From: Candidatus Eiseniibacteriota bacterium
GTDB taxonomy: Bacteria; Eisenbacteria; RBG-16-71-46; DASYSL01
Direction: 5' to 3'
Length of the DNA stretch: 64,000 nt
Assembly: GCA_050733935.1 (NCBI GenBank)
Contig: JBOHUC010000024.1
Coordinates: forward strand, 8,750 to 72,749
Shown here: piece after piece, positions 8,251 through 39,314 of the stretch
Numbering within the stretch: the first letter of the stretch is position 1
Layout of the letters: every line of letters begins with the position of its first letter
The notes under the pieces: generated by a model
Told to the model about the DNA's origin: nothing
Seen by the model: the letters and a program-made list of their open reading frames with translations, nothing else
Databases searched by the model: none
Made by a program: the position numbers and the translations under genes

Positions 8251-9018
8251 TCAGCGTGCGGTGTAGCCCCCGTCGATCACGAGCTCGCTTCCGGTCACGA
8301 ACTTCGATTCGTCGGATGCGAGATAGAGGATGCCGTAGGCGATGTCGTCCGGCTCGCCCATGCGCCCGAGAGGGTGGCGTGCGGCGATCGTCTTCTTCCC
8401 GCCTTCCACGTCGCCCGACGCCTCAAGGAAGCCCTCGACCATCGGCGTCCAGATGAAGCCCGGGTGAACCGAGTTCACCCTGATGTTTTCGCGCGCGTAG
8501 TACATCGCATCCGTCTTGGTCATGAGGCGAAGCGCCCCCTTCGACGCATGATATGGCGGAGCATCGGGCGCGCCGACGAGCCCGTAGATCGAGGAGAGAT
8601 TCACGATGCTTCCGCCGCCTGCCTTTCGCAGGTGTGGGATCGAGTGCTTCGTGCAGAAAAAACAGCCCTTCACGTTCACGGCCTGGACCCGGTCCCACTC
8701 GGCCTCGGTGATCTCTTCGGTCGGCTTGCTCGCGCCGCTGATGCCCGCGTTGTTGACGAGAACGTCGAGCCGCCCGAATTCCTGAACGACCTCTGCGATC
8801 ACGCGCCGGACTTCGTCCTCTTTCGCCACGTCGAGGTGCCAGTACTTCGCGCGCCCGCCGGCCGTGCGTATCTCCTCAGTGAGCTTCGCGCCCTCGCTGT
8901 CGAGCACGTCCGTCACCGCGACCGACGCCCCTTCCCGCGCGAGCATGAGACACGCCGCACGGCCGATGCCGAGCGCCCCGCCCGTGACGATCGCGACCTT
9001 TCCTGCCACTCGATTCAT
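8251..9018 (-). CDS. SDR family short-chain dehydrogenase/reductase
   Basis: TGGALGIG Rossmann motif, NNAG, and the YxxxK catalytic motif (PYHASK). The start at M10 is preceded by AGGAGA 5 nt upstream. Confidence 0.85.
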   Translation of the reverse strand: MNRVAGKVAIVTGGALGIGRAACLMLAREGASVAVTDVLDSEGAKLTEEIRTAGGRAKYWHLDVAKEDEVRRVIAEVVQEFGRLDVLVNNAGISGASKPTEEITEAEWDRVQAVNVKGCFFCTKHSIPHLRKAGGGSIVNLSSIYGLVGAPDAPPYHASKGALRLMTKTDAMYYARENIRVNSVHPGFIWTPMVEGFLEASGDVEGGKKTIAARHPLGRMGEPDDIAYGILYLASDESKFVTGSELVIDGGYTAR

Positions 9019-26866: not shown

Positions 26867-28732
26867 ATGGAGGAGTCCTTGGGCACTCCCGCCAAATCGA
26901 CCGGGAACGATCTCCGTCAACTCGGCTGGCTTCTCGCCTGGGCCGTCGTCTTCTGCGACATCGGCACCAGCGTCTACTACGTGCCGGGCATTCTCTACGG
27001 CGACGTCGGCGACCTGGCCCCGGTCTTCGTCGCGCTCACGACGATCGGATTCATCCTGCTCGCCACGAAGTACGTCGAAGTGTCGTGGCGGAATCCCGAG
27101 GGCGGCGGTGTCGTCACGGTCGCCACCAAGGCGTTCAGCCCGTTCGTCGGCGCGATCGGCGGCATGCTCATCATCGTGGATTACTTCCTCACGTCCGCGA
27201 TCTCCTCCGTCAGCGCGTGGCAGTACATCGGCTCGGTCCTTCCGTTCTTCAGCCAGCATGTCGAGCTCATGGCCGGGCTCGGGCTCGTCTTCCTCGCGCT
27301 CATCAACATCGTCGGGATCAAGGAAAGCGCGACCCTCGCGCTCTACATGGCGGCCGCCTCGTTCGGCGTGAACCTGATCGTCTTGGGCGTCGTCGCGGTC
27401 AATCTCACCCCCGAGCAGTGGGCGTTCGCGCTCGAGCAGACGCGCGCGGTCCGGTCCATTCCCGCTCAGTCCGCGCTCATCGGCTTCGCAGGTGCCTGGC
27501 TCGCGTTCTCGGGGCTCGAGAGCATCAGCCAGCTCTCGCCCGCGATGCGCCACCCGATCCGGTCGACCGCAAGCCGCGCGATGCTCCTCGTCGTGCTGAC
27601 GATGGCCGTCACGTCTCCTCCGCTCACGACCCTGGCGGTCGCGGGTCTCGACGAGATCACGAAGCAGGCGAGCAAGGAGTACTTCATCTCCGAGCTCGGG
27701 CGCATCTACGGCGGCCCGTGGCTCGCGTGGAGTGTCGTGATCTCCGCCTCGGCGCTCCTTCTCTTCGCCGCGAACACCGCGTTGATCGGCGGCTATCACG
27801 TGTTCCTCGCACTCTCGCGCGCCGAATACCTGCCGTCCGCGCTCGCAAAGCGGAACCGCATCTTCGGAACCCCCCACATCGGAATCATCCTGTTCACGGT
27901 CGTCACGTTTGCGATCGTGCACGCGACGCAGGGCCGGCTCGAGATGCTCGGCCACATGTATTCGTTCGGGCTCCTGGGCGCGTTCACGTTCACGTCCGCC
28001 GGGCTCGACGTGATCCGATGGCGCGAGGGCCAGCGCGGCCCGGTGTTCTGGGTCGGGCTCGTGACGACCGCGATGGTCGCGACTGCCTGGGGCGTGAACA
28101 TCATCTTCAAGCCGCAGGCGACCCTGTTTGGCGGCGGCGTGGTCCTGCTCGGTGTCCTGATCGCAGTCGGCATCCGAAAGGACTGGGCGATCCGAATGCT
28201 GAACCAGCTCCCGTGGGTCGCGAGCGAAGCCGCGCGGCAGCGGACGCGCGCGGAGGACATCTGGGAGCGCCGGAGTCGCGAGATCGTCTCGCTCGAGACT
28301 GCGATCGAAGCGTCACAGATCGAGCCGTCGAGGACGCTCGTCGCGATTCGCGATTCGAACCCGCGCCTCATCGACGAGGCGATCCTCCGGGCCAAGGGCA
28401 TCGGCGACACCGCCATCTTCGTGCTCGCGGTGACCGAGTGGCCGGGGTTGTTCTCGGGCGAGCAGCTCCAGCCCGAACCGCGGTTGCTCGAGGCGATCGA
28501 CGACGCGGCCGACCGCATTCGTGCGGCGGGGCTCACGCCGATCGCGGTCTGGCGACTGTCGCACGATGCAGCGCGCTCGATCGCCGACGCCGCGCGCCAG
28601 CTCGAAGTGAACGCGGTCATGGTCGGAGTGAGCCAGCGCTCGCAGCTCGTCCACATGCTCCGCGGGTCGGTGTTGAAGGGCCTGCACCGGCTCCTCCCCG
28701 GAGACCGGATCCTCATTCACACGGTCGGCTAG
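26867..28732 (+). CDS. APC family amino acid/polyamine permease fused to a C-terminal UspA domain
   Basis: 12-TM APC-like core. The C-terminal ~140 aa are Usp-like (TAIFVLAV ... NAVMVGVSQRSQL ... GSVL). Confidence 0.8.
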   Translation: MEESLGTPAKSTGNDLRQLGWLLAWAVVFCDIGTSVYYVPGILYGDVGDLAPVFVALTTIGFILLATKYVEVSWRNPEGGGVVTVATKAFSPFVGAIGGMLIIVDYFLTSAISSVSAWQYIGSVLPFFSQHVELMAGLGLVFLALINIVGIKESATLALYMAAASFGVNLIVLGVVAVNLTPEQWAFALEQTRAVRSIPAQSALIGFAGAWLAFSGLESISQLSPAMRHPIRSTASRAMLLVVLTMAVTSPPLTTLAVAGLDEITKQASKEYFISELGRIYGGPWLAWSVVISASALLLFAANTALIGGYHVFLALSRAEYLPSALAKRNRIFGTPHIGIILFTVVTFAIVHATQGRLEMLGHMYSFGLLGAFTFTSAGLDVIRWREGQRGPVFWVGLVTTAMVATAWGVNIIFKPQATLFGGGVVLLGVLIAVGIRKDWAIRMLNQLPWVASEAARQRTRAEDIWERRSREIVSLETAIEASQIEPSRTLVAIRDSNPRLIDEAILRAKGIGDTAIFVLAVTEWPGLFSGEQLQPEPRLLEAIDDAADRIRAAGLTPIAVWRLSHDAARSIADAARQLEVNAVMVGVSQRSQLVHMLRGSVLKGLHRLLPGDRILIHTVG

Positions 28733-28741
28733 GTCCGCCTG

Positions 28742-29383
28742 ATGAGCGACACCTCGTCGGTCGCGCTCCCCGCGCTCGTCGATCTCGGCGCGGTGTTCGT
28801 GAGCGCGCTCTCGGGGGCGCTGTTCGCGCAGAGCAAGCGCATGGATCTCGCCGGGCTTGCCGGGCTTGCGATCGTGACCGGGCTCGGCGGAGGAATGATC
28901 CGCGACGTGCTCCTGCAACGCGGGCTTCCTGCGGCCCTCGCCGACGCGCGCTACCTCGTGACCGCGCTTGCCGGAGCGCTTGCGGTGCTCGCGTTCGGAG
29001 CGCTGGTCGCGCGCGCCGCTCGTGCGCTTCTCGTCGTGGATGCGCTGAGCCTCGGCGTGTACGGGGTCGTCGGCACGCTCAAGGCGGTCTCGTTCGGGCT
29101 TTCGTTCGTGCCGGCCGTGTTCCTGGGCGTGATTACCGCGGTGGGCGGCGGTGTGTTGCGCGATGCGCTCGCGGGCGAGATCCCCGCGATCTTCAAGCCC
29201 GGCGAGCTCTACGCCGTTCCGGCCGTATTCGGCTGCGCGATCCTCGTCCTTCTTCTGGACGCGGGCTGGAGCCAGGTCGCCGCCGGAGCAGCGGGCTTCG
29301 TCGCGATCGTCGTCTTCCGCCTCCTGTCGCTTCAGTTCGGCTGGCGGACGCGCGCCGCAGGCGCGTCCGGCCCCGGGACTTGA
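28742..29383 (+). CDS. UPF0126 (YadS/TRIC-like) membrane protein
   Basis: Duplicated GGGMIRDVLL / GGGVLRDAL motifs. Confidence 0.75.
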   Translation: MSDTSSVALPALVDLGAVFVSALSGALFAQSKRMDLAGLAGLAIVTGLGGGMIRDVLLQRGLPAALADARYLVTALAGALAVLAFGALVARAARALLVVDALSLGVYGVVGTLKAVSFGLSFVPAVFLGVITAVGGGVLRDALAGEIPAIFKPGELYAVPAVFGCAILVLLLDAGWSQVAAGAAGFVAIVVFRLLSLQFGWRTRAAGASGPGT

Positions 29384-29493
29384 CCGGAGACCTGAGCGGG
29401 AACGGCCGCTGCCGCTCCCCTGTTCGTGCAATGCTCGCAAAGTTTCGTCGCCGATCCGCATCGTAAGACCTGAAGACCAGGAGCTCTCCCGCC

Positions 29494-29976
29494 ATGAGCG
29501 AAGTCCGCATTTTCCTCCGTCACACGGTCGCCACGCTCGCCTACCGGGGCGGCAAGGCCACACGCGGCGCCACTTCTGAGTTCGGCAGCTTCAAGGTGGG
29601 GCCCACGACACGCACGCCGCGCGAGATCGTGGCGCACGTCGGCGATCTCCTCGAATGGGCTCTGACGATGGCGCAGGGTCAGGAGAAGTGGGTGCGCGCG
29701 ACGCCGGTCTCGTGGGAGGGCGAGGTCCAGCGCTTTCACCGCTGCCTGCAGGCGTTCGACGCCTACCTCGAGTCGGGCGAGCCTCTCAACGTGAGTGTCG
29801 AGCGGCTATTCCAGGGACCCATCGCCGACGCTCTCACGCACGTCGGGCAGGTCGCGATGCTCCGGCGTCTCGCCGAGGAGCCGATGAAGGGCGAGAACTA
29901 TGCGCGGGCACAGATCGAAAGCGGACGCGTCGGGCCGGATCAAGTCCCCGCCGAGCCGAAGAACGAATTCGACTGA
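29494..29976 (+). CDS. DinB superfamily protein
   Basis: His-Asp-His triad spacing typical of DinB_2 (EIVAHVGDLLEW ... DALTHVGQVAMLRR). Confidence 0.6.
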   Translation: MSEVRIFLRHTVATLAYRGGKATRGATSEFGSFKVGPTTRTPREIVAHVGDLLEWALTMAQGQEKWVRATPVSWEGEVQRFHRCLQAFDAYLESGEPLNVSVERLFQGPIADALTHVGQVAMLRRLAEEPMKGENYARAQIESGRVGPDQVPAEPKNEFD

Positions 29977-30016
29977 ACCTGGGGTGCGGCAGGTTGTCCG
30001 GCCGATGTGCCGCGAG

Positions 30017-30141
30017 ACTCGCCCGGGTAACTTGCCCCGGGGCAACGTTGACATAACGAACGATGAACTCGCTCTGGAGCGAATTCATCAACGGTGTTGA
30101 TCGCCGCCAGGAGCCCGTGAACTTGCCCCGGCGTGTTGAGG
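30017..30141. repeat. Two copies of the palindromic repeat AACTTGCCCCGGGGCAAGTT in a convergent intergenic region
   Basis: GTAACTTGCCCCGGGGCAACGTTGAC and GTGAACTTGCCCCGGCGTGTTGAG. The same palindrome occurs three times at 53505-53625. Confidence 0.6.
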
Positions 30142-30160
30142 GGAACACCGCCCGAGCCCC

Positions 30161-30727
30161 CTACCGACCGAACTTGTTCTCCATCTTCTGATTGAAGGCG
30201 GTCGACTGGCCGCGCGGGATGCTGAGCGAGCGGAACGACGCGCCGCCTGCGTGCTTCGCAAGCAGCACGATCTGTCCCACATGATTCCCGTAGTGCGTGA
30301 GCTGACGATGGATCGCTGCGATCACTGTGTGCGGCTCGCCCCGGATCGTGATCGTCCTCTGGAGATCGTCCCCCTTGAGCGGCTCGAGGGCGGTGAACAG
30401 CGAGTTCCAGCCCGCCTGCCAGCGGGCCATGAGCGCTTCGCGCGTGTCGGCTTCGCCCGGCTCGAACTCGGTGTCGCGGTTCCGGTCCGGCTTCTCGCCG
30501 TCGCTCGTCAGGAAGTCGGTCCAGCGCGACCGCAGGTTTCCCGCGATGTGCTTGACCACGACCGCGATGCTGTCTCCTTCCGGCGCGGGCACGTCGAAGA
30601 ACGTGGCGTCGTCCACCTGGTCGAGTGCCTTCTCCGCGAGCTTCTTGAGACCGCGGAACTCTTCGATAGCGTTCGCAAGCACGAGATCGCCGACAGTGCC
30701 CTGCGTCCCGGCCGGATTGCCGCTCAT
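30161..30727 (-). CDS. DUF1572 family protein (DinB/YfiT-like fold)
   Basis: IAVVVKHIAGNLRSRWTDFLTSDGEKP...TIRGEPHTVIAAIHRQLTHYGNHVGQIVLLAK. The start is the internal ATG, and the Arg-rich upstream ORF portion is rejected. Coordinates follow ORF-table arithmetic. Confidence 0.7.
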   Translation of the reverse strand: MSGNPAGTQGTVGDLVLANAIEEFRGLKKLAEKALDQVDDATFFDVPAPEGDSIAVVVKHIAGNLRSRWTDFLTSDGEKPDRNRDTEFEPGEADTREALMARWQAGWNSLFTALEPLKGDDLQRTITIRGEPHTVIAAIHRQLTHYGNHVGQIVLLAKHAGGASFRSLSIPRGQSTAFNQKMENKFGR

Positions 30728-31368
30728 GTGCCACCTCCCATGGGATGCTGCGGCCACGCCGCAAGCGGTCGCCCGATCGCCTCGCGCGCGCGCCGGGCCT
30801 GTTCGAGATGCCGCTCCTGGTGGACTGCGATCGCCGCGAACCATGCGCCGAGACGCACACGAATGAGCGGGGTCGCGGCCGATCCCACGCGCACGCGGGA
30901 CAGCGCGAGGCCGCGCGCGCGCTCGACACGCGCGAGTAGCTCTTCCTGAAGGATCAAGAACGACTGCACCACACCCTCGATCGTGAGATGCGACCGCGGG
31001 ACGAACGCCCGGGGCGTGCGCATGCGCTGCGTCGGGCGGCCCTTCACGCTCGCGAGCGAGCGGACGAACAGGCGGTCGAACCATCCGTAGTCGATCGGAT
31101 TTGCGACGCCGGGCGTGACGTTACCCACGCCGCCCGATCGCTCCCGTGTCTTCTCGATGCCCCGATCGAGCCGGGGCAGCATGAGCCCGCCCTGCACGTT
31201 CAAATGATCGAGGCACTGTCCGACGGACCACGAACCTGGCTCCGGCTCGCGGATGAACTCGGCGGGAGAGAGTCCGTCGACGAGCGCTTGCGCGCGCACC
31301 TGATCCCGGTGGTATGCGCGCGCGCATTCGTCGAGATCGAGCGGCAGCGCAGCCGCGGGTTTCTTCAC
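30724..31368 (-). CDS. DinB family protein
   Basis: C-terminal HQERHLEQ motif. The GTG start is inferred at 31368, and the stop overlaps the DUF1572 start (ATGA). Confidence 0.5.
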   Translation of the reverse strand: MKKPAAALPLDLDECARAYHRDQVRAQALVDGLSPAEFIREPEPGSWSVGQCLDHLNVQGGLMLPRLDRGIEKTRERSGGVGNVTPGVANPIDYGWFDRLFVRSLASVKGRPTQRMRTPRAFVPRSHLTIEGVVQSFLILQEELLARVERARGLALSRVRVGSAATPLIRVRLGAWFAAIAVHQERHLEQARRAREAIGRPLAAWPQHPMGGGT

Positions 31369-31381
31369 CGGCGCGGAGCTC

Positions 31382-31891
31382 TCATCGCGACCCCCCGGAT
31401 GGACAGACAGCGCGGACGTACGGGAACTCGACCTTTCTCGACTTCCCGTCGACCGTCCCTTCGATCCAGGCCTCGAGCGAGCCGTCGCGCCCGCGGCGAT
31501 ACGCGACACGCTGCGGGAAGTCGTGCGTCGCGTTCTCGAACACGACAAGCGAGTCGGTGAGCGTGATCGACGTGAACGACGCCTGCGATTGACCTGACGG
31601 CAGCGAGGTGAACACGAGACGACCGTCCTTCTCCTCGATCCTGAGCTGCTCGTACTCGACCACGCGCTGTTCCGCGAGCGAGACCGTCCGGCTCGAGCCG
31701 AGCATGAGTCCCGCCGCCGGCGCCATCCACTGCTCTTCGACGAGACGCTTCGTGGATTCGCGCTTCCAGCAACCGGCGAGCCACTCGAGGCGCGCGAGCG
31801 CGGTCGGTGCGGTCGGCGCGGTCGGTGCGGCCGGTGCGGCCGGTGCGGCCGCGGCGCAGACGATCGCAGTCGCGACCCAGGCGGCGATCAA
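31382..31891 (-). CDS. NTF2-like/SnoaL-like fold small protein with an N-terminal PAAPTAP repeat
   Basis: LEWLAGCWKRE ... VVFEN ... FPQRVAYRR pattern. Putative TTG start overlapping the DUF1684 stop (TTGA), with GGAGGG upstream. Confidence 0.45.
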   Translation of the reverse strand: MIAAWVATAIVCAAAAPAAPAAPTAPTAPTALARLEWLAGCWKRESTKRLVEEQWMAPAAGLMLGSSRTVSLAEQRVVEYEQLRIEEKDGRLVFTSLPSGQSQASFTSITLTDSLVVFENATHDFPQRVAYRRGRDGSLEAWIEGTVDGKSRKVEFPYVRAVCPSGGSR

Positions 31892-32541
31892 TGACCCTCC
31901 ACGTCCAGCATGCCCGCCTCGATCGCAACCGGGAGCCAGTTCTCCCGTGGCGGCAGCGGACAGATCCACGTCGAATCGTAGGCGCAGTACGGGTTGTAGG
32001 CTTTGTTGAAATCGAGCACGAACTTGTGCGTGTCGAGGGAGTCGAGGTGAACGTACCGGCCACCGCCATAGGTCGCGATGCCGCTCGTCGAGTCCGCAAA
32101 CGCGATGAAGTACTGCTCGGGGTGCTCGAACGGCCGGTAGACGATGAGACGAAGCGTGTCTCCGCGGACGAGGAACGGATAGCTCCCGTACTCGAAGTAA
32201 GGCGAAGACTTCCCGCGGTTGTCCGGAAGCTGGATCGCCTTCGGCGGCCGGTAGCGCTCGAGATCCCCGACGAAGCGCCAGGTCGGAGCGTACGGATAGA
32301 AGCCAAGCTCCGCGAACGACGCCCGCATCTCCTCCGGGAGCGGCGAATCCGATCCGCGCATGACGTCGTCCCACTGCTGCTTGTGAGTTGCGAACTGGGA
32401 CTGAAGCATGGAGAGCGTCGCGGGCGGCAGCTCCTCGTTCCGTGCCGGCGGGACGGGACCTCCCTCGTCCTTCTTCGCGCAACCTGGAAGCAGGCCGCCC
32501 AACAACAGCAATGTGGCGGCGAGCCGCAGCGACCGCCTCAC
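31888..32541 (-). CDS. DUF1684 domain lipoprotein
   Basis: Lipobox LLPGC and the [13 protein letters not shown] signature. The GTG start overlaps the SPFH stop (GTGA). Confidence 0.75.
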
Positions 32542-33296
32542 ACCTTCTTCTCCATGAACGCCTTGAGGAAGTCAATCGGCACCGGGAAGATGGTCGTCGA
32601 GTTGTTCTCGGTCGCCACCTCGGCGAGCGTCTGCAGGTAGCGGAGCTGAAGTGCCGCCGGCTCCCGGCCGATGATCGCCGCAGCCTCGGCGAGCCTTTGG
32701 GCCGCCTGGAACTCGCCCTCGGCGTTGATCACCTTCGCCCGGCGTTCGCGCTCGGCTTCGGCCTGGCGGGCAATCGCGCGCTGCATCTCCTGCGGCAGAT
32801 CCACGTGCTTCACTTCGACGACACTCACCTTCACGCCCCAGGGATCGGTCTGGTTGTCGATGATCTTCTGCAGATCCTGGTTGATCTTCTCGCGCTCGGA
32901 GAGGATCTCGTCGAGCTCGGCCTGACCGCAGATCGAGCGCAACGTGGTCTGCGCGATCTGGCTCGTCGCATACAGGTAGTTCTCGACTTCGACGACGGCG
33001 CGCGAGGCGTCGACGACGCGAAAGAAGATGACCGCGTTCACCTTGACCGAGACGTTGTCCCGCGTGATCACGTCCTGGGGCGGAACGTCCATGCTCACGG
33101 TTCGCAGGGAGACCTTGACCATCCGGTCCACGACCGGGATCAGGAAGATGAGCCCGGGCCCCTTCGTTCCGATGAGCCGGCCGAGTCGGAACACGACGGC
33201 GCGCTCGTACTCGCGCAGCACCTTGACGGCGCTTCCGAGGATGAGCACGAGCAGAATGACGAGCGGCAGCATGAATCCGGTGAAGATCTGTGTCAT
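32538..33296 (-). CDS. SPFH/band-7 (stomatin-like) protein
   Basis: TM segment plus SPFH core ([17 protein letters not shown] ... [16 protein letters not shown]) and a coiled-coil tail. ATGA overlap with nfeD. Confidence 0.85.
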
Positions 33297-34702
33297 GGAG
33301 CCTTCGCCTCCATCGCGACCGCGGCGGTCGCGTCCCGGGTCTCGAGGGGCATCACGCGTGCGGTGAGCCCCTCGAGACGCACGATCTGAACCGCACTGCC
33401 CGCCCGGATGGGCGGTGCCCCCGGAGCCGCAAGCGCGCCCCAGATCTCGCCCCGCACCCGGACCTGTCCGGCCTGGGTCCCGCTGATGTCCGAGATCGCG
33501 ACTCCCTGTCCGCCCACGAGCCCCTCGGCCCCGGTCACGGGCTTCCGGCGCTGCGCCCTCAAGCCTGCGCCGAGCGCGAACAGGAAGAACGCGGCGACGC
33601 CGATGGTCGTGCTCGCGATCACGCCGAGCGAGACCCGAAACGCGGGCCCCGAAGCCGGATTGAAGAGGAGGAGCGAGCCCGCCACGAACGCGAGCACGCC
33701 GCCGGATGCGAGAATGCCGTGGCTCTGCACCTTGAGCTCGATCAGGAAGAACACCATCGCGAGCAGGATGAGGAGGAGCCCGCCCAGATTGACGGGCAGC
33801 GTCTGGAACGCGATGAGCGCGAGCACGAGGCAGATCGCACCGATCACTCCCGGCAGGATCGATCCCGGATTCGAGAGCTCGAACACGAGCCCGAGCGTCC
33901 CGAGATTGAACAGGATGTAAGCCACGGTCGGATCCGCGAGCGTCGAGAGGACGCGGTGACGGAGCGAGGGCTCGATCTGGTGCACGGTGGCGCCGGTGAG
34001 TTCGAGCGTGAGCTCGCCCGAGCGGACGCGCACCGTCCGTCCGTCGGCCTTCGCGAGGAGCTCGTGCACGTCCCTTGCGACGAAGTCGACGACGCCGAGC
34101 TCGATCGCTTCCTTCTCGGAAGCAGCGACCGCTTCGCGCACCGCACGCACGTTCCATGCGGCGTTCCGGCCGCGCTCCTTCGCGAGCGTTTCGATGAACG
34201 CGGCCGCGTCGTTCGTCGCCTTGCTCTTGAGCGTCGAGTCCATCGGCGCGCCCATCGCGACCGGCGAGGCGGCGCCGAGATTCGTGTTCGGGGCCATGGC
34301 CGCGACGTGGGAGGCCGTCACGATGAAGAGTCCGGCGGACGCGGCGCGCGAGCCTTCGGGCGCGACCCAGGTGATCACCGGCACGTTGCTCTTGAGGATG
34401 GCCTGCACGATCGAGCGCATCGAGGCGTCGAGTCCGCCGGGCGTGTCGAGCTCGATCACGAGCGCGGCACGATCGTTCTTCTCCGCACTCGCGATGGCGT
34501 GCGTCACCTGCTCGAGCACGATCGGCGAGATCACTTTGTCGACGCGGATGACGTCGGCGGAAGGCACGGCCGACGCGGCAGACGCGGCCGATGCGGCCGA
34601 CACGGCCGGCTCGGCGGCGCGAGCGGCGACCGGAACGGCCGGCGCGGCGACGGCGCTCAGCAGGACGGCGAGAAATGGAAGGTTCGGGAAGCGACGATGC
34701 AT
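33293..34702 (-). CDS. NfeD family membrane-bound ClpP-class serine protease
   Basis: Signal peptide, ClpP-like domain ([21 protein letters not shown] ... [12 protein letters not shown]), multi-TM region and a C-terminal OB-fold. Classic partner of SPFH. Confidence 0.8.
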
Positions 34703-34806
34703 GCGGGCCTCGTGGAGCGCAGCATAGCGCACCCCGCGGCCGCGTGCTACGATGCCTCTACCCTGTGTCACCTCCGACCCCAGTCCTCCCGGAGGGTATC
34801 GCCGGA

Positions 34807-36906
34807 ATGGTTCGCTCTTCCGACCCCGTCGCGTCCGAGCGCCCCTTGCGCAAGGGCGCGGACGGACGTCCCACACGCGAAGCGCTCGAGCGTCAGAATT
34901 TCGAGCTCACCGCACTGCTCGAGATCGCGCGCGGACTCTTGTCCGCCGGCGATCCCGGACAGGCCGTGGGCCAGTTCCTGCTCTCCTGCGTGGCGGGTGT
35001 AGGGGCCGCGAGCGCTGCGGGCCTCCGCTGGGAGGCCGACCGCGGCCGGCTCAGGCTGTGGCGGCACTACGGCTATCAGGAAGCGATCGTCACCGACATC
35101 CGTCCGGTGCTCGACCCCGAAGACCTCGTCTTTCTCGAAAGCGCGGAAGCCCGGAGCGGCGTGTCACTCAAGCCGTCGCCCGGAAGCGATCGCTGCCGCG
35201 ACTTCGTGCGCCGAAACGGCGACTGGCTCGCGCGTCTCGATGCGCAGGCAATTGTCCCGCTCGTCGGTCGCGGCGGCTTCTACGGACTTGCGGTCTGGGG
35301 ACCACGCCTTCTCGGCGAGGACTACGGCGACGACGAGCTCGATCTTCTCGCGACCGCCGCCCAGCTCTGCACGCAGGCGCTCGAGAACCTCCTCTATCAC
35401 TCGACGGGAGCCGCGTCCGGTGAGCAGCCGACGTTCGGTCCGGTCGAACCGACCGAAGCTCCGGGCGCGCTCGAGCCCGACGCGGGACCGTCCGCGCATC
35501 TCGGCAAACTTTCGCTCTCGGAGCTGCGCCGGCGATTTCCGATCACGCAGGAGATCGTGGGCGAGAGCCCGACGTTCGAGCGCTTCTTCCGCGAAGTCGC
35601 GATGGTCGCGCCCGCGCGCTGCCCCGTGCTCATCCTTGGCGAAACCGGAACGGGCAAGGAGCTCGCGGCCCGCGCGATCCATCACCTCTCACCGCGCGCC
35701 GAGCGGCCGTTCGAGGTGGTCGACTGCGGCTCGATCCCGCGCGAGCTGATCGAGAGCGAGCTCTTCGGGCACGTGCGCGGCGCCTTCACGGGCGCGACAC
35801 GCGATCGCCGCGGCGCGTTCGAGCTCGCGAACGGCGGAACGCTGTTCCTCGACGAGATCGGCGAGCTCCCGAACGGCGCACAGACGCGCCTCCTCCGGGT
35901 TCTCCAGGAAGGACGCTTCCGCCGCGTCGGCGACGAGCGCGCGATCCAGGTGGACGTGCGCGTGGTCGCCGCCACGAACCGCGACCTTCTGAGCGAGGTC
36001 AAGGCCGGCCGATTCCGCGAAGATCTCTACTATCGTCTCAACGTGTTCTGCATCCGTCTGCCGGCGCTGCGCGAGCGGCGCCAGGACATCCCGCTCCTCG
36101 TCTCCCACGTCCTGGACCGGCTCGCCGACGATCTCGGCGGCCCGCCGCCGCGGCTTCCGACCGCCGTGCTCCGCCGCCTCGAGGAGTACGCGTTCCCGGG
36201 CAACATTCGGGAGCTTCGAAACCTCCTCACCGCCCTCGTGCTGCGCACGCAGGGTCGTGTGCCGACGCTCGAGGATCTCGACAATCTCCTCGAGCATTCG
36301 GAGGCGGGGCTCCTCGGGAACGGGTTCGCATCCCAGGGCGCGGGCCGCGAGGCGCGGCCGGCGTCGGGGCCGGGCTCGCGCTATCCGGATGCGCCCGCTC
36401 CGGTCGGTGCCGGGACTCCCTATCGCGATCCGGACGATGACGACGGCCCGTCGCCCTCGCGACCGCTCAAGCGCGACGTCGAGACGACCGGCGCCTGGGT
36501 GCTCGACCAGCTCCGTCGTTGCGACTTCAACCTGAGCCAGGCCGAGAGAAGCCTCGCGCGCCTCCGCCGCTCACCGGCCGGGCGAGCTGCAGCCCCGGTC
36601 GCCGACCGCTCGAGCCTCACGTATTACTTCCAGGGCGAATGCTTCAAGGCTTTCGCGGCCGCCGGCTTCGACCTGAAGCGCGCGGCGCGCGCGATCGCCG
36701 TCCTCCCCGACCTCGAGGATCGCGCCCGCGCCCGCCTCGAGGGCTACCTCGAATTCGTGATCGAGATCACGAACGAAGCGAACGATGACAACGACGCGCG
36801 GGAACGCTGCCGCGCGCGCCTTCCCAAGCTCCCCGCCCCCTACCTGCCGCACCTCGATGCAGTCGTCGACGCCTGTCGACGCGGAGGCTGGTCCCTCGGC
36901 AAGTAA
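34807..36906 (+). CDS. Sigma-54-dependent transcriptional activator (GAF, AAA+, HTH) with an extra C-terminal domain
   Basis: GETGTGKE Walker A, GAFTGA motif (HVRGAFTGA), the arginine-finger region, and an HTH with an insertion. RBS GGAGGG lies 10 nt before the ATG at 34807. Confidence 0.85.
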
Positions 36907-36927
36907 CGGTCCCGCTCCCGCGGCCGC

Positions 36928-37194
36928 CTAAGGCTGGTTCATCGGCGGAGGGGGCGGCGGTGGCGGCGGAGCGTTCCCGTCATTGCATCCGCTGAGATCC
37001 TCGAGGAATTCGTCGATCATGATGTAGATGTACGGCGCCTTGTCGCGCAGGAACTTGAAGATCGCACCTCCAAGCCGCGCCCAGGGGTTGTGTGTCTCGA
37101 TCGAGCTGCCGGCCATTGCCGCGCGCGGGGATGCGGCGAGGCTTCCCGCGGTCACGAGGGCGACGAGAGTAAGAAGGCTCACGAGCTTTCGCAT
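36928..37194 (-). CDS. Small secreted protein A with a poly-proline tail (paralog family)
   Basis: Signal peptide MRKLVSLLTLVALVTAGSLAA, core ...NPWARLGGAIFKFL...IDEFLEDL, and a C-terminal PPPPPPPPP. Confidence 0.55.
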   Translation of the reverse strand: MRKLVSLLTLVALVTAGSLAASPRAAMAGSSIETHNPWARLGGAIFKFLRDKAPYIYIMIDEFLEDLSGCNDGNAPPPPPPPPPMNQP

Positions 37195-37511
37195 GTGCGT
37201 GTCTCCGAAGGGGACCGTGTCTCCGACGGGGAACGTGTCCTCGCGAGGGCGGTGATGCGCCGAAGCGAACGCGCCGTCGAGGAGTGACGGCGCGTCACGT
37301 CGGCGAACGGCTCCCGGGCGACCACACGACGGATCGCACCGGGAACCGCACTTCGAATCGCGCGAGCGGCCCATCGCACGATGCCGCGGCCCGGACCCGC
37401 TTCCGCGGGAGTCCACGCGGGCTCCGCAAAAGCGCTGAGCAAGGCGAGAACGCCGAGCACCGCGAGCCCGACCACGACGAGCGATCGACGGACGCACGAG
37501 AGGCGAATCAA
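37179..37511 (-). CDS. Putative small secreted protein D (paralog family, weakest member)
   Basis: TTG start overlapping the stop of B (TTGA). Strong signal peptide (IRLSCVRRSLVVVGLAVLGVLALLSAFA). The mature part is Arg-rich, so this may be a spurious frame. Confidence 0.3.
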   Translation of the reverse strand: MIRLSCVRRSLVVVGLAVLGVLALLSAFAEPAWTPAEAGPGRGIVRWAARAIRSAVPGAIRRVVAREPFADVTRRHSSTARSLRRITALARTRSPSETRSPSETRTCESS

Positions 37512-37774
37512 CCGCTCGAATCCGCCGGCGGCCAGGGTGGATCCCCGGGAACCCACTGATCGATCACGTCCTCGAGGAACTCGAGCACCCGCTTGAGGGC
37601 CCGCCGGATCAACTCGACCGGCACGCGCGGAAGATCCCATCCCTGGATCTCGAACGAGGGTGTCCGGTCCCCGTCGTCTACACCGGCGACCGAAATCGGT
37701 GGAGCCGGGAGCCCGAGCGCGATGGCCAGCACGAGTACGAGCGCGAGCTTCAGGGGGCTTCTCCGGGCGCTCAT
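37508..37774 (-). CDS. Small secreted protein B with a Pro-rich tail (paralog family)
   Basis: ATGA overlap with C. Signal peptide, then ...RVLEFLEDVIDQW, then PGDPPWPP. Confidence 0.5.
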   Translation of the reverse strand: MSARRSPLKLALVLVLAIALGLPAPPISVAGVDDGDRTPSFEIQGWDLPRVPVELIRRALKRVLEFLEDVIDQWVPGDPPWPPADSSG

Positions 37775-38130
37775 TCCTGCTCGGGAGCGTTGCAGGATCC
37801 AGAAGCTGGCGACCCGGGTGCAGGGTCGCCGTGACCGGGACTGCGCGCAGGTTCGATGGCCGGTCCGGCCGCGGGACCGACAGGAACCGGAGCGATCATC
37901 GGGGGTCGGGGCGGCGGATTGTGGCGCTTTGCGCTCTCCCAGTATCCGCGCACGAGCTCGCTGATGCCATCGAGGCCGTCGAACATGGCGCGCGTGAGCC
38001 AGAGGCCGATGCGCGCGGCATCGTACGGATTGGCGGTGAACGCCGGGAGCGGGACGATCGGATGTGCCGGCGCGGAGCGCGGCACGAGGACGAGTCCGAT
38101 CGAGAGAAGAACGAACGCGAGAGATCGCAT
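37771..38130 (-). CDS. Small secreted protein C with a Pro-rich tail (paralog family)
   Basis: Signal peptide MRSLAFVLLSIGLVLV, core ...NPYDAARIGLWL...ISELVRGYWE, then a NPPPRPP...Pro/Gly/Ala-rich tail. RBS GAGG precedes the ATG at 38130. Confidence 0.55.
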   Translation of the reverse strand: MRSLAFVLLSIGLVLVPRSAPAHPIVPLPAFTANPYDAARIGLWLTRAMFDGLDGISELVRGYWESAKRHNPPPRPPMIAPVPVGPAAGPAIEPARSPGHGDPAPGSPASGSCNAPEQE

Positions 38131-38204
38131 GCGACCTCACGGCGGGAGCGGGCCCGGGGGCTCCCTTGGATCGACTGCGCCGGGGCCGCGCGAATCACGC
38201 GGAA

Positions 38205-38221
38205 CGCAAGCCGGGTGCCAG
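38205..38221 (-). promoter_or_regulatory. Sigma-54 (-24/-12) promoter
   Basis: The minus strand reads CTGGCACC-CGGC-TTGCG, matching TGGCACG-N4-TTGC. It lies about 75 nt upstream of gene C with no intervening ORF. Confidence 0.6.
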
Positions 38222-38378
38222 AAGGCAGACAGGCTCGAGTCGGCCACGCCCTGGCAGCGACACGCTCGCGTCCAACGAGTTAGGGACGAATCGTCTTCTG
38301 CAGACGCCCGAGACGCGCCGCAACTTCGCCGAACGAGGGACGCACGGCGTCGAGCGCTCGACGAATCGGCGGGTTAGA

Positions 38379-39314
38379 TCAGAGGATTCGCTTCCCGAGG
38401 GCAGACAGAAGGAGCTCGACGGCCAGATTGGCCGTCTGGTTGTGCTCGTCGAGCACCGGATTCACTTCCATGAGATCGAAGGCCATGAGGCGGCTCGAAT
38501 CCGACACCATCTCCATCGCAAGATGGGCCTCGCGATACGTGATGCCGCCGGGCACGGTCGTCCCGGTGCCCGGAGCGAACGACGGATCGATGCAGTCCAT
38601 GTCGAACGAGACATGAAGTCCGCCCGTTCCGTTGAGCGCGATCGCGAGCGCCTCCTCCATCACGGCCCGCATGCCCCGTTCGTCGATCTGGCGCATCGTG
38701 AACACGTGCACGCCAACCTGCTCGATGTTGCGCTTTTCACCCAGGTCGATCGAACGCGGGCCCACGAGCACGGCATTCTTCGGATGCACCTTGGGCTTGA
38801 AGCCCGCGATCTCGGTCATGTCCCGGTCGCCGAGCCCGACGGCGATCGCGAGCGCCATGCCGTGGATGTTCCCCGACGGAGTCGTCTCCGGCGTGTTCAT
38901 GTCGCCGTGCGCGTCGAACCAGATGAGGCCCATCGTCTCGTCGCGCTTCCTGAGATACGCGCCCAGGCCCGACGTCGAGCCGATCGCAACCGAGTGATCC
39001 CCGCCCAGGACGACGGGCAGGCACCCGTCGTCGAGCGACTGCTCGACTGCGATCGAAAGCTCGCGGCAGGTCTCGAGGATCGGCGCCTTGTACTTGAGCT
39101 TCGAGTCCCCGTGCTCCTGCTGCTCAGGAAGCTTGACGCGCACGTCGCCGAAATCCTCGACCGTGTATCCGAGCGCGCGCAGCCGGCTCCCGAGCTCGGC
39201 CACCCGCAGGGCCGAAGGGCCCATGTCCACGCCCCGCCGTCCGGCGCCCAGATCCATCGGGGCGCCGACCAGGCGGATGCGCTTGCTCGCGAGCACGCTC
39301 GGTACCGTCGACAT
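38379..39314 (-). CDS. rocF: Arginase (ureohydrolase family)
   Basis: GGDHSVAIG, DAHGDMNTP, SFDMDCIDP and GGITYRE manganese-binding motifs. Confidence 0.82.
   Translation of the reverse strand: MSTVPSVLASKRIRLVGAPMDLGAGRRGVDMGPSALRVAELGSRLRALGYTVEDFGDVRVKLPEQQEHGDSKLKYKAPILETCRELSIAVEQSLDDGCLPVVLGGDHSVAIGSTSGLGAYLRKRDETMGLIWFDAHGDMNTPETTPSGNIHGMALAIAVGLGDRDMTEIAGFKPKVHPKNAVLVGPRSIDLGEKRNIEQVGVHVFTMRQIDERGMRAVMEEALAIALNGTGGLHVSFDMDCIDPSFAPGTGTTVPGGITYREAHLAMEMVSDSSRLMAFDLMEVNPVLDEHNQTANLAVELLLSALGKRIL

Follow-up and report, generated by a model that had tools for sequence, protein, structure and literature searches.

Operons in which nfeD, in its ClpP-type NfeD1b form, is followed by an SPFH gene are a known arrangement, and the survey that describes them mentions that 'additional genes' are sometimes part of such operons, naming none of the four families that follow the pair at the locus analysed here (Hinderhofer et al., 2009; PMC2636767). 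For one of these families, DUF1684, the sole functional hint in the literature comes from HVO_1043 of Haloferax volcanii, a strong chromatin immunoprecipitation sequencing (ChIP-seq) target of the oxidative-stress, thiol-based regulator OxsR; HVO_1043 was proposed to be a thiol-relay protein because of its Cx7C motif (PMC9426492). Another, DUF1572, is a member of the DinB/YfiT clan of metalloenzymes (PMC4520260). Here we analysed a window of 64,000 nt (positions 8,750 to 72,749 of contig JBOHUC010000024.1; GC content ~68%) from the metagenome-assembled genome of an uncultured soil bacterium, labelled Candidatus Eiseniibacteriota, in which an nfeD-SPFH pair is joined on the minus strand to genes for DUF1684, DUF6265, DinB_2 and DUF1572 proteins. 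The initial annotation of this run had suggested a functional unit of unknown role. On balance, we lean towards a composite operon, in which a protease-stomatin pair is combined with a changeable, clade-specific tail of reactive-species and thiol-stress genes and no obligate coupling exists between the two.

The six genes with their four start/stop overlaps and single 13-nt gap were read directly from the sequence at exactly the coordinates of the initial annotation (Table 1), and public gene calls (GCA_975254425.1) have identical starts and stops for all six. A codon-likelihood caller built on the window, which matches most public calls across it, returned four of the six unchanged and gave slightly shifted starts for the remaining two; it was used instead of a GC3-based stop-to-stop caller for open reading frames (ORFs), which missed overlapped genes. 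Clear Shine-Dalgarno-like motifs (GGAG, GAGG or GGAGG) precede five of the six starts by 4-10 nt, and the start of DinB_2 has a weak GAGAG alone, 10 nt upstream. The start/stop overlaps suggest co-expression and, probably, translational coupling.

The front two genes were characterised by their database matches. Pfam assigned NfeD1b_N (E=1.9e-13), NfeD_membrane (5.4e-24) and NfeD (6.7e-12) to the first protein, giving a layout of signal/anchor, ClpP-like serine protease domain, membrane domain and C-terminal OB-fold NfeD domain. Its residues 56-257 matched the protease domain of Pyrococcus horikoshii PH1510 (PDB 2DEO/3BPP) with E=4.6e-37, and in the alignment Ser122 and Lys161 fall on the catalytic residues Ser97 and Lys138 of PH1510 (Ser97 being the residue of the S97A entry 6M4B; numbering by counting). 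The second protein matched Band_7 (E=2.7e-42), human stomatin (E=1e-76) and PH1511 (E=1.3e-64). Judged from these alignments, the front two genes are a canonical NfeD1b-SPFH1b protease-stomatin pair of the PH1510/PH1511 type, in line with their initial description as a known module. As the first part of the operon, the membrane-bound Ser-Lys protease and the oligomeric SPFH scaffold would form a membrane-microdomain and quality-control module.

Whether this pair belongs to the genes behind it was addressed by the synteny comparison that had been named as a check, using clade loci fetched via exact-protein look-up and a metagenome scan. DUF1684 relatives split into ~70 proteins with at least 51% identity, which carry an N-terminal extension, and a remainder with 47% identity or less. 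In nine loci the order NfeD-SPFH-DUF1684 is kept across 56-100% DUF1684 identity (form A: the window, L003 at 75%, the P0010 contig at 61%, L005, L086, L090, L093, L094 and L096). Five further related contigs (form B: L087, L088, L089, L091 and L095) have DUF1684 directly after a conserved promoter-like block and a divergent activator gene, and neither nfeD nor SPFH was detected anywhere on them (up to 9.7 kb). The activator genes of form B are 79-89% identical to that of the window and lie ~45-60 nt from DUF1684 in four of the five contigs. The form B contigs also share the arginase, TldD and permease neighbours of the window. As form B does without nfeD and SPFH, the link between this pair and the tail is facultative.

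The tail itself is variable as well. DUF6265 is absent from the P0010 contig, L090, L093, L095, L097 and L100, and a gene for RidA (Ribonuc_L-PSP) stands before DinB_2 in most relatives (confirmed for L005, L089, L094 and L097). In L090 a RidA remnant lies between DUF1684 and DinB_2 (1159-1584), internally deleted so that its N- and C-terminal motifs are fused, which shows gene decay within the tail directly. A cupin was detected by Pfam in L095, and the same cupin by sequence reading in L088. DUF1684 is followed by DUF1572 in all contigs of sufficient length, with DinB_2 between them in all except L005, where it was not detected. An insertion of 2.8 kb separates DinB_2 from DUF1572 in L094 (2620-5430); it holds genes for an ECF-sigma-like protein, for an anti-sigma-like protein and, on the opposite strand, for a 411-aa protein with no Pfam match. 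Junctions of tens to hundreds of bases are frequent in the relatives, and translational coupling is therefore not a constant feature of the clade. Clade-wide synteny extends over the whole 20-kb neighbourhood (arginase, activator, permease, ECF sigma/anti-sigma), which makes the conserved order weaker as evidence of function.

The four tail proteins were assigned from Pfam, alignments and structure models, and three of the original labels, the DUF1684 lipoprotein and the pair with a DinB fold, proved right. The DUF1684 protein (Pfam E=9.8e-42) has a signal peptide with a conserved lipobox Cys21, and its Cx7C motif (C186, C194) is invariant in an alignment of 18 diverse sequences. It is 34-46% identical to members from outside the Eisenbacteria, and the relatives in PDB (2LNU, 2LOK/4DLH) carry the annotation 'uncharacterized'. 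For the fourth gene, DUF6265 (E=6e-25) was the only Pfam match. Its AlphaFold2 (AF2) model (pLDDT 90.8) consists of one N-terminal helix and a ten-strand beta-barrel, which matched PDB 3IA8, 2A13 and 3WJB with TM 0.60-0.66 and a Foldseek probability of 1.00; 2FWV and 2FR2 were also among the best matches, and the top 12 were all barrels of the nitrobindin/Rv0813/Rv2717c type. One histidine (H123) is invariant. The protein is probably an exported, nitrobindin/calycin-like barrel, and the all-beta model together with the DUF6265-only match led us to reject the initial label 'NTF2-like' for this gene. DinB_2 was assigned with E=2.7e-15 (57.4 bits against a cut-off of 24.8) and DUF1572 with E=2.1e-62 (210 bits against a cut-off of 23), the latter also matching DinB_2, MST and MDMPI_N and passing the cut-offs of MST and MDMPI_N. 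By sequence reading, histidines occur in the expected helices of both proteins (CLDHL and HQERH in DinB_2, VKHIAG and HYGNH in DUF1572). Searches of PDB by sequence returned nothing meaningful for DUF6265, DinB_2 or DUF1572, and NCBIfam gave no name for the four tail genes or for a convergent 160-aa ORF next to DUF1572. None of the seven proteins tested matched the PADLOC models of anti-phage defence, and a reading as a defence system was dropped on this result.

As the second part of the operon, these genes would make up an evolutionarily fluid tail of small proteins whose folds point to the handling of reactive species. Outside the cytoplasm it would comprise the Cx7C lipoprotein DUF1684 and the exported, nitrobindin-like DUF6265, and in the cytoplasm two putative metalloproteins with the DinB fold, which is that of the bacillithiol/mycothiol S-transferases; RidA and the cupin would extend it in relatives within the clade. 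The two parts would then stand side by side as envelope and reactive-species stress genes rather than act as one obligate machine.

Outside the clade, the analysis covered 80 DUF1684 loci taken from representative genomes across many phyla, and 64 from metagenomes in which DUF1684 was the only match. When the six window proteins were used in tblastn, none of the other five genes was found within 10 kb of DUF1684 in any of these 144 distant loci. The 111 co-directional immediate neighbours of distant DUF1684 genes were most often RadC (25), PheT (14) and PAS/GAF histidine kinases (11); DinB, SPFH, NfeD and DUF6265 were not among the 25 most frequent neighbour families, each occurring at most twice among the 111. 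In the Cytophagales loci (L014-L085) RadC lies upstream and PheT downstream of DUF1684. A PAS/GAF histidine kinase gene is located immediately downstream of DUF1684 in L134, L136, L139, L146, L153, L154, L160, L162 and L164, and a sigma-54 activator homologue follows ~3 kb downstream of DUF1684 in this group.

Around DUF6265, rows of small enzymes were seen. Four of six unrelated DUF6265 loci have genes of the DinB family no more than 5 kb away (directly adjacent in L167, separated by one gene in L169), two have a glyoxalase and one DJ-1/PfpI, with lactamase-B, DUF5655 and TrmO nearby in others of the six. These surroundings support the theme of a loose array of small detoxification and stress enzymes, not a fixed complex. 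In L167 a DUF1684 gene with 34% identity lies ~1.1 kb downstream. The unrelated lineage of L167 (4471-12447) and L169 (2458-7207) has the order DinB_2-DUF6265-DJ-1/PfpI-NIPSNAP-DUF1684 in one direction. A Zn-ribbon gene and an SPFH gene of the Band_7_1/HTH_17 type are located 1-5 kb away in both, an arrangement that recalls YdjG/YdjI of Bacillus subtilis.

The two loci are a second, independent case of an SPFH gene near a DinB/DUF6265 cluster, and they bear on the possibility that all six genes form one integrated unit. In such a unit the stomatin/NfeD microdomain would recruit DUF1684 and DUF6265 and form, together with the DinB enzymes, one envelope redox-repair system, with the coupling of the genes setting its stoichiometry. 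The SPFH protein of L167 and L169 is, however, of another subfamily, L167 has no tblastn match to the SPFH protein of the window at E<=0.01, and the two loci look syntenic with each other and therefore count as about one event. Within the clade, the nine loci of form A would fit an integrated unit, whereas the tail and promoter block without the front pair in form B, the variable tail membership and the lack of any SPFH or NfeD gene within 10 kb of the 144 distant DUF1684 genes argue against it. We therefore consider an integrated unit quite improbable, and the initially proposed functional unit finds just partial support: the gene order is kept down to ~56% DUF1684 identity, and the synteny is present in the clade, without the front pair in five contigs, and missing from the distant loci.

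The composite operon has to be held against several observations that weigh the other way. The SPFH-DUF1684 junction is tight in every contig that bears SPFH, as would equally be expected from a functional link. In a neighbour-joining tree of DUF1684, calculated without support values, form B is nested within form A, and because the loci lacking nfeD thus stand among those containing it, the six-gene form may be ancestral and long maintained. The theme of reactive species draws on resemblance at the fold level and on one archaeal ChIP-seq paper. Co-transcription and the promoter are what we infer from the DNA sequence, and the promoter-like block is poor as a sigma-70 consensus and could be an operator. 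A far-reaching reading would be a stomatin/NfeD microdomain that serves as platform for envelope redox repair, with DUF1684 and DUF6265 at the outer face, the DinB-fold transferases dealing with lipid-derived electrophiles or peroxynitrite at the inner face, and the nfeD-less loci explained as secondary losses compensated in trans. This is highly improbable in our view; if true, stomatin would gain a defined bacterial client set and four uncharacterised families would gain functions.

How unusual the tight packing is was judged from the other 34 co-directional junctions of the window, excluding the six-gene run. Fifteen of these (44%) measure 13 nt or less and ten (29%) are overlaps, giving a naive probability of ~0.017 for five consecutive tight junctions; the six-gene run is the longest tight run in the window, the next longest being 3. 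The run is real and operon-like, and its tight packing is ordinary for a genome of 68% GC. As close packing is the normal style of this genome, the tightness of the six genes is no special signal. This base rate would also suit an operon of convenience, in which four unrelated small tail genes drifted into one transcription unit of a compact genome and share no theme, as would the free gain and loss of tail genes and the clade-wide synteny of the neighbourhood, by which order conservation is not specific to these genes. We nevertheless regard it as rather unlikely, since all genes gained or lost are alike (small DinB, RidA, cupin and barrel proteins), DUF1684 and DUF1572 keep their succession wherever the contig is of sufficient length, and the repeated placement of DUF6265 beside DinB, glyoxalase and DJ-1 genes outside the clade is more than would be expected at random.

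Table 1. Coordinates of the six-gene run, its junctions and neighbouring features in the window.
Feature	Position	Strand	Details
nfeD, long NfeD1b form	33293..34702	-	469 aa; ATG 34702; stop TGA 33293-33295
SPFH/Band 7, stomatin-type	32538..33296	-	252 aa; start ATG overlaps nfeD stop
DUF1684 lipoprotein	31888..32541	-	217 aa; GTG start 32541
DUF6265	31382..31891	-	169 aa; TTG start 31891; GGAGG precedes start
DinB_2 family four-helix-bundle protein	30724..31368	-	214 aa; GTG start 31368
DUF1572 (DinB clan)	30161..30727	-	188 aa; ATG start 30727; stop TAG 30161-30163
Junction nfeD/SPFH	33293-33296	-	ATGA overlap
Junction SPFH/DUF1684	32538-32541	-	GTGA overlap
Junction DUF1684/DUF6265	31888-31891	-	TTGA overlap
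Junction DUF6265/DinB_2	31369-31381	-	13-nt gap
Junction DinB_2/DUF1572	30724-30727	-	ATGA overlap
Conserved promoter-like block, 34 nt	34721..34754	-	CATCGTAGCACGCGGCCGCGGGGTGCGCTATGCT (TAGCAY-N17-TATGCT); ends 18 nt before nfeD ATG
Terminator-like 13-bp hairpin	30061..30090	-	followed by UUCGUUAUGU; 71 nt past DUF1572 stop, between convergent genes
160-aa ORF convergent with DUF1572	29494-29976	+	no Pfam, NCBIfam or PADLOC match
Sigma-54 activator (enhancer-binding protein) gene	34807-36906	+	divergent from nfeD
Near-consensus sigma-54 promoter	38205-38220	-	TGGCACCCGGCTTGCG; far side of activator gene
Three small secreted proline-rich genes	37771-38130, 37508-37774, 36928-37194	-	no Pfam match

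That the six genes form a single transcription unit, as initially proposed, is consistent with the signals found around them. Consensus scans of 29400-35400 detected no sigma-70-like promoter, and no terminator-like site on the same strand inside the run; the hairpin behind DUF1572 is the sole minus-strand terminator-like site of this interval, and the fold of 30040-30165 has -50.9 kcal/mol (z=-2.2). The promoter-like block sits in the 104-nt gap between nfeD and the divergent sigma-54 activator gene. It is kept in L003, L005, L088, L089, L091 and L095, whether nfeD or DUF1684 leads the operon, and across related loci whose proteins diverged to 55-75% identity; a strict sigma-70 scan did not flag it. 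We infer that the block acts as promoter, or as promoter-operator, of the operon, so that transcription would probably start there, upstream of nfeD, and end at the hairpin. Its reverse complement holds TACGAT and may serve the divergent activator gene. In L087 (218-360) the block halves TAGCAT and GCGCTACTCT are parted by an insertion of ~60 nt, which suggests two separable elements, one for each divergent gene. A search of 28500-39000 against Rfam at E<=1 gave one chance-level match alone, inside the activator gene, and no relevant leader, riboswitch or small RNA.

In every related locus the activator gene stands directly next to the operon in divergent orientation, whatever gene leads the operon, and its product is 79-90% identical among relatives in which DUF1684 is only 55-75% identical; long N- and C-terminal regions of the protein are without a Pfam domain. 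From its constant position one might expect the activator to drive the six-gene operon from a -24/-12 promoter. However, no such element (GG-N10-GC) was found upstream of nfeD in 34680-34900, the conserved block within the 104 nt between the two genes has a -35/-10 layout, and a good sigma-54 promoter, TGGCACCCGGCTTGCG, is present beyond the activator gene, where it precedes an operon for small secreted proteins by 75 nt and is kept in L003, L005, L089 and L095. Control of the six genes by the activator is hence hardly credible, and the secreted-protein operon is the likelier target.

At the other end of the run, the 160-aa ORF belongs to a family of at least 7,979 database proteins, and the best 120 relatives listed, which are ~61-79% identical, include proteins from Eisenbacteria, Gemmatimonadota and Pyrinomonadaceae. 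Its AF2 model (pLDDT 91.3) shows a four-helix bundle of the DinB/YfiT type with 8F5V and DR0053 as best matches, and H10, H48 and H116 are invariant. By this model, the locus would hold three DinB-fold genes, including DinB_2 and DUF1572. Homologues of the ORF in two other phyla (two loci checked) showed no linkage to DinB, DUF1572 or SPFH; one of them adjoins a gamma-glutamyl transpeptidase gene. In L095 (7401-8351, minus strand) the place of the 160-aa ORF, convergent with DUF1572, is taken by another gene, which encodes an HTH-DUF4423-glyoxalase fusion (Pfam), and the convergent small protein of L090 (2762-3190, minus strand) is glyoxalase-like by sequence reading only. Both may represent another small detoxification-type gene at that position.

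Tightly overlapping starts and stops are not enough to define a functional unit in a compact, high-GC genome, and the best-known pair of this run is demonstrably detachable. What is useful is the association, at the level of the clade, between DUF1684, RidA, DinB_2 and DUF1572, which DUF6265 often joins; it provides context for four poorly understood families and fits the sole published hint that places DUF1684 in thiol and oxidative-stress biology. We regard this association as a lead for function prediction and not as a new system.

Compared with known systems, DinB_2 and DUF1572 are placed by Pfam in the DinB clan like the DinB/YfiT thiol S-transferases (B. subtilis YfiT, the Mycobacterium tuberculosis mycothiol S-transferase 8F5V), but at the level of sequence they match no enzyme that has been solved or characterised. 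According to its model, DUF6265 shares the 10-strand barrel and N-terminal helix of nitrobindins (Arabidopsis At1g79260, the C-terminal domain of human THAP4, M. tuberculosis Rv2717c); identity is just 11-15%, the likeness is one of fold alone, and DUF6265 is, in contrast to these proteins, probably exported. With HVO_1043 the DUF1684 protein shares the Pfam family and the invariant Cx7C, but it differs in being a lipoprotein with a clade-specific N-terminal extension and in its gene context. The membrane-stress operon pspA-ydjGHI (samGHI) of B. subtilis likewise has an SPFH gene among unrelated stress-operon partners; the SPFH subfamily and the partner genes are different and NfeD is absent. 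The closest likeness is that of the front pair to PH1510/PH1511 of P. horikoshii, with nfeD before SPFH and overlapping stop and start codons, an NfeD protein with N-terminal ClpP-like domain, Ser-Lys dyad, membrane domain and C-terminal OB fold, and a stomatin orthologue as the SPFH partner. What distinguishes the locus from a plain NfeD1b-SPFH1b operon are the four further genes joined here at its 3' end.

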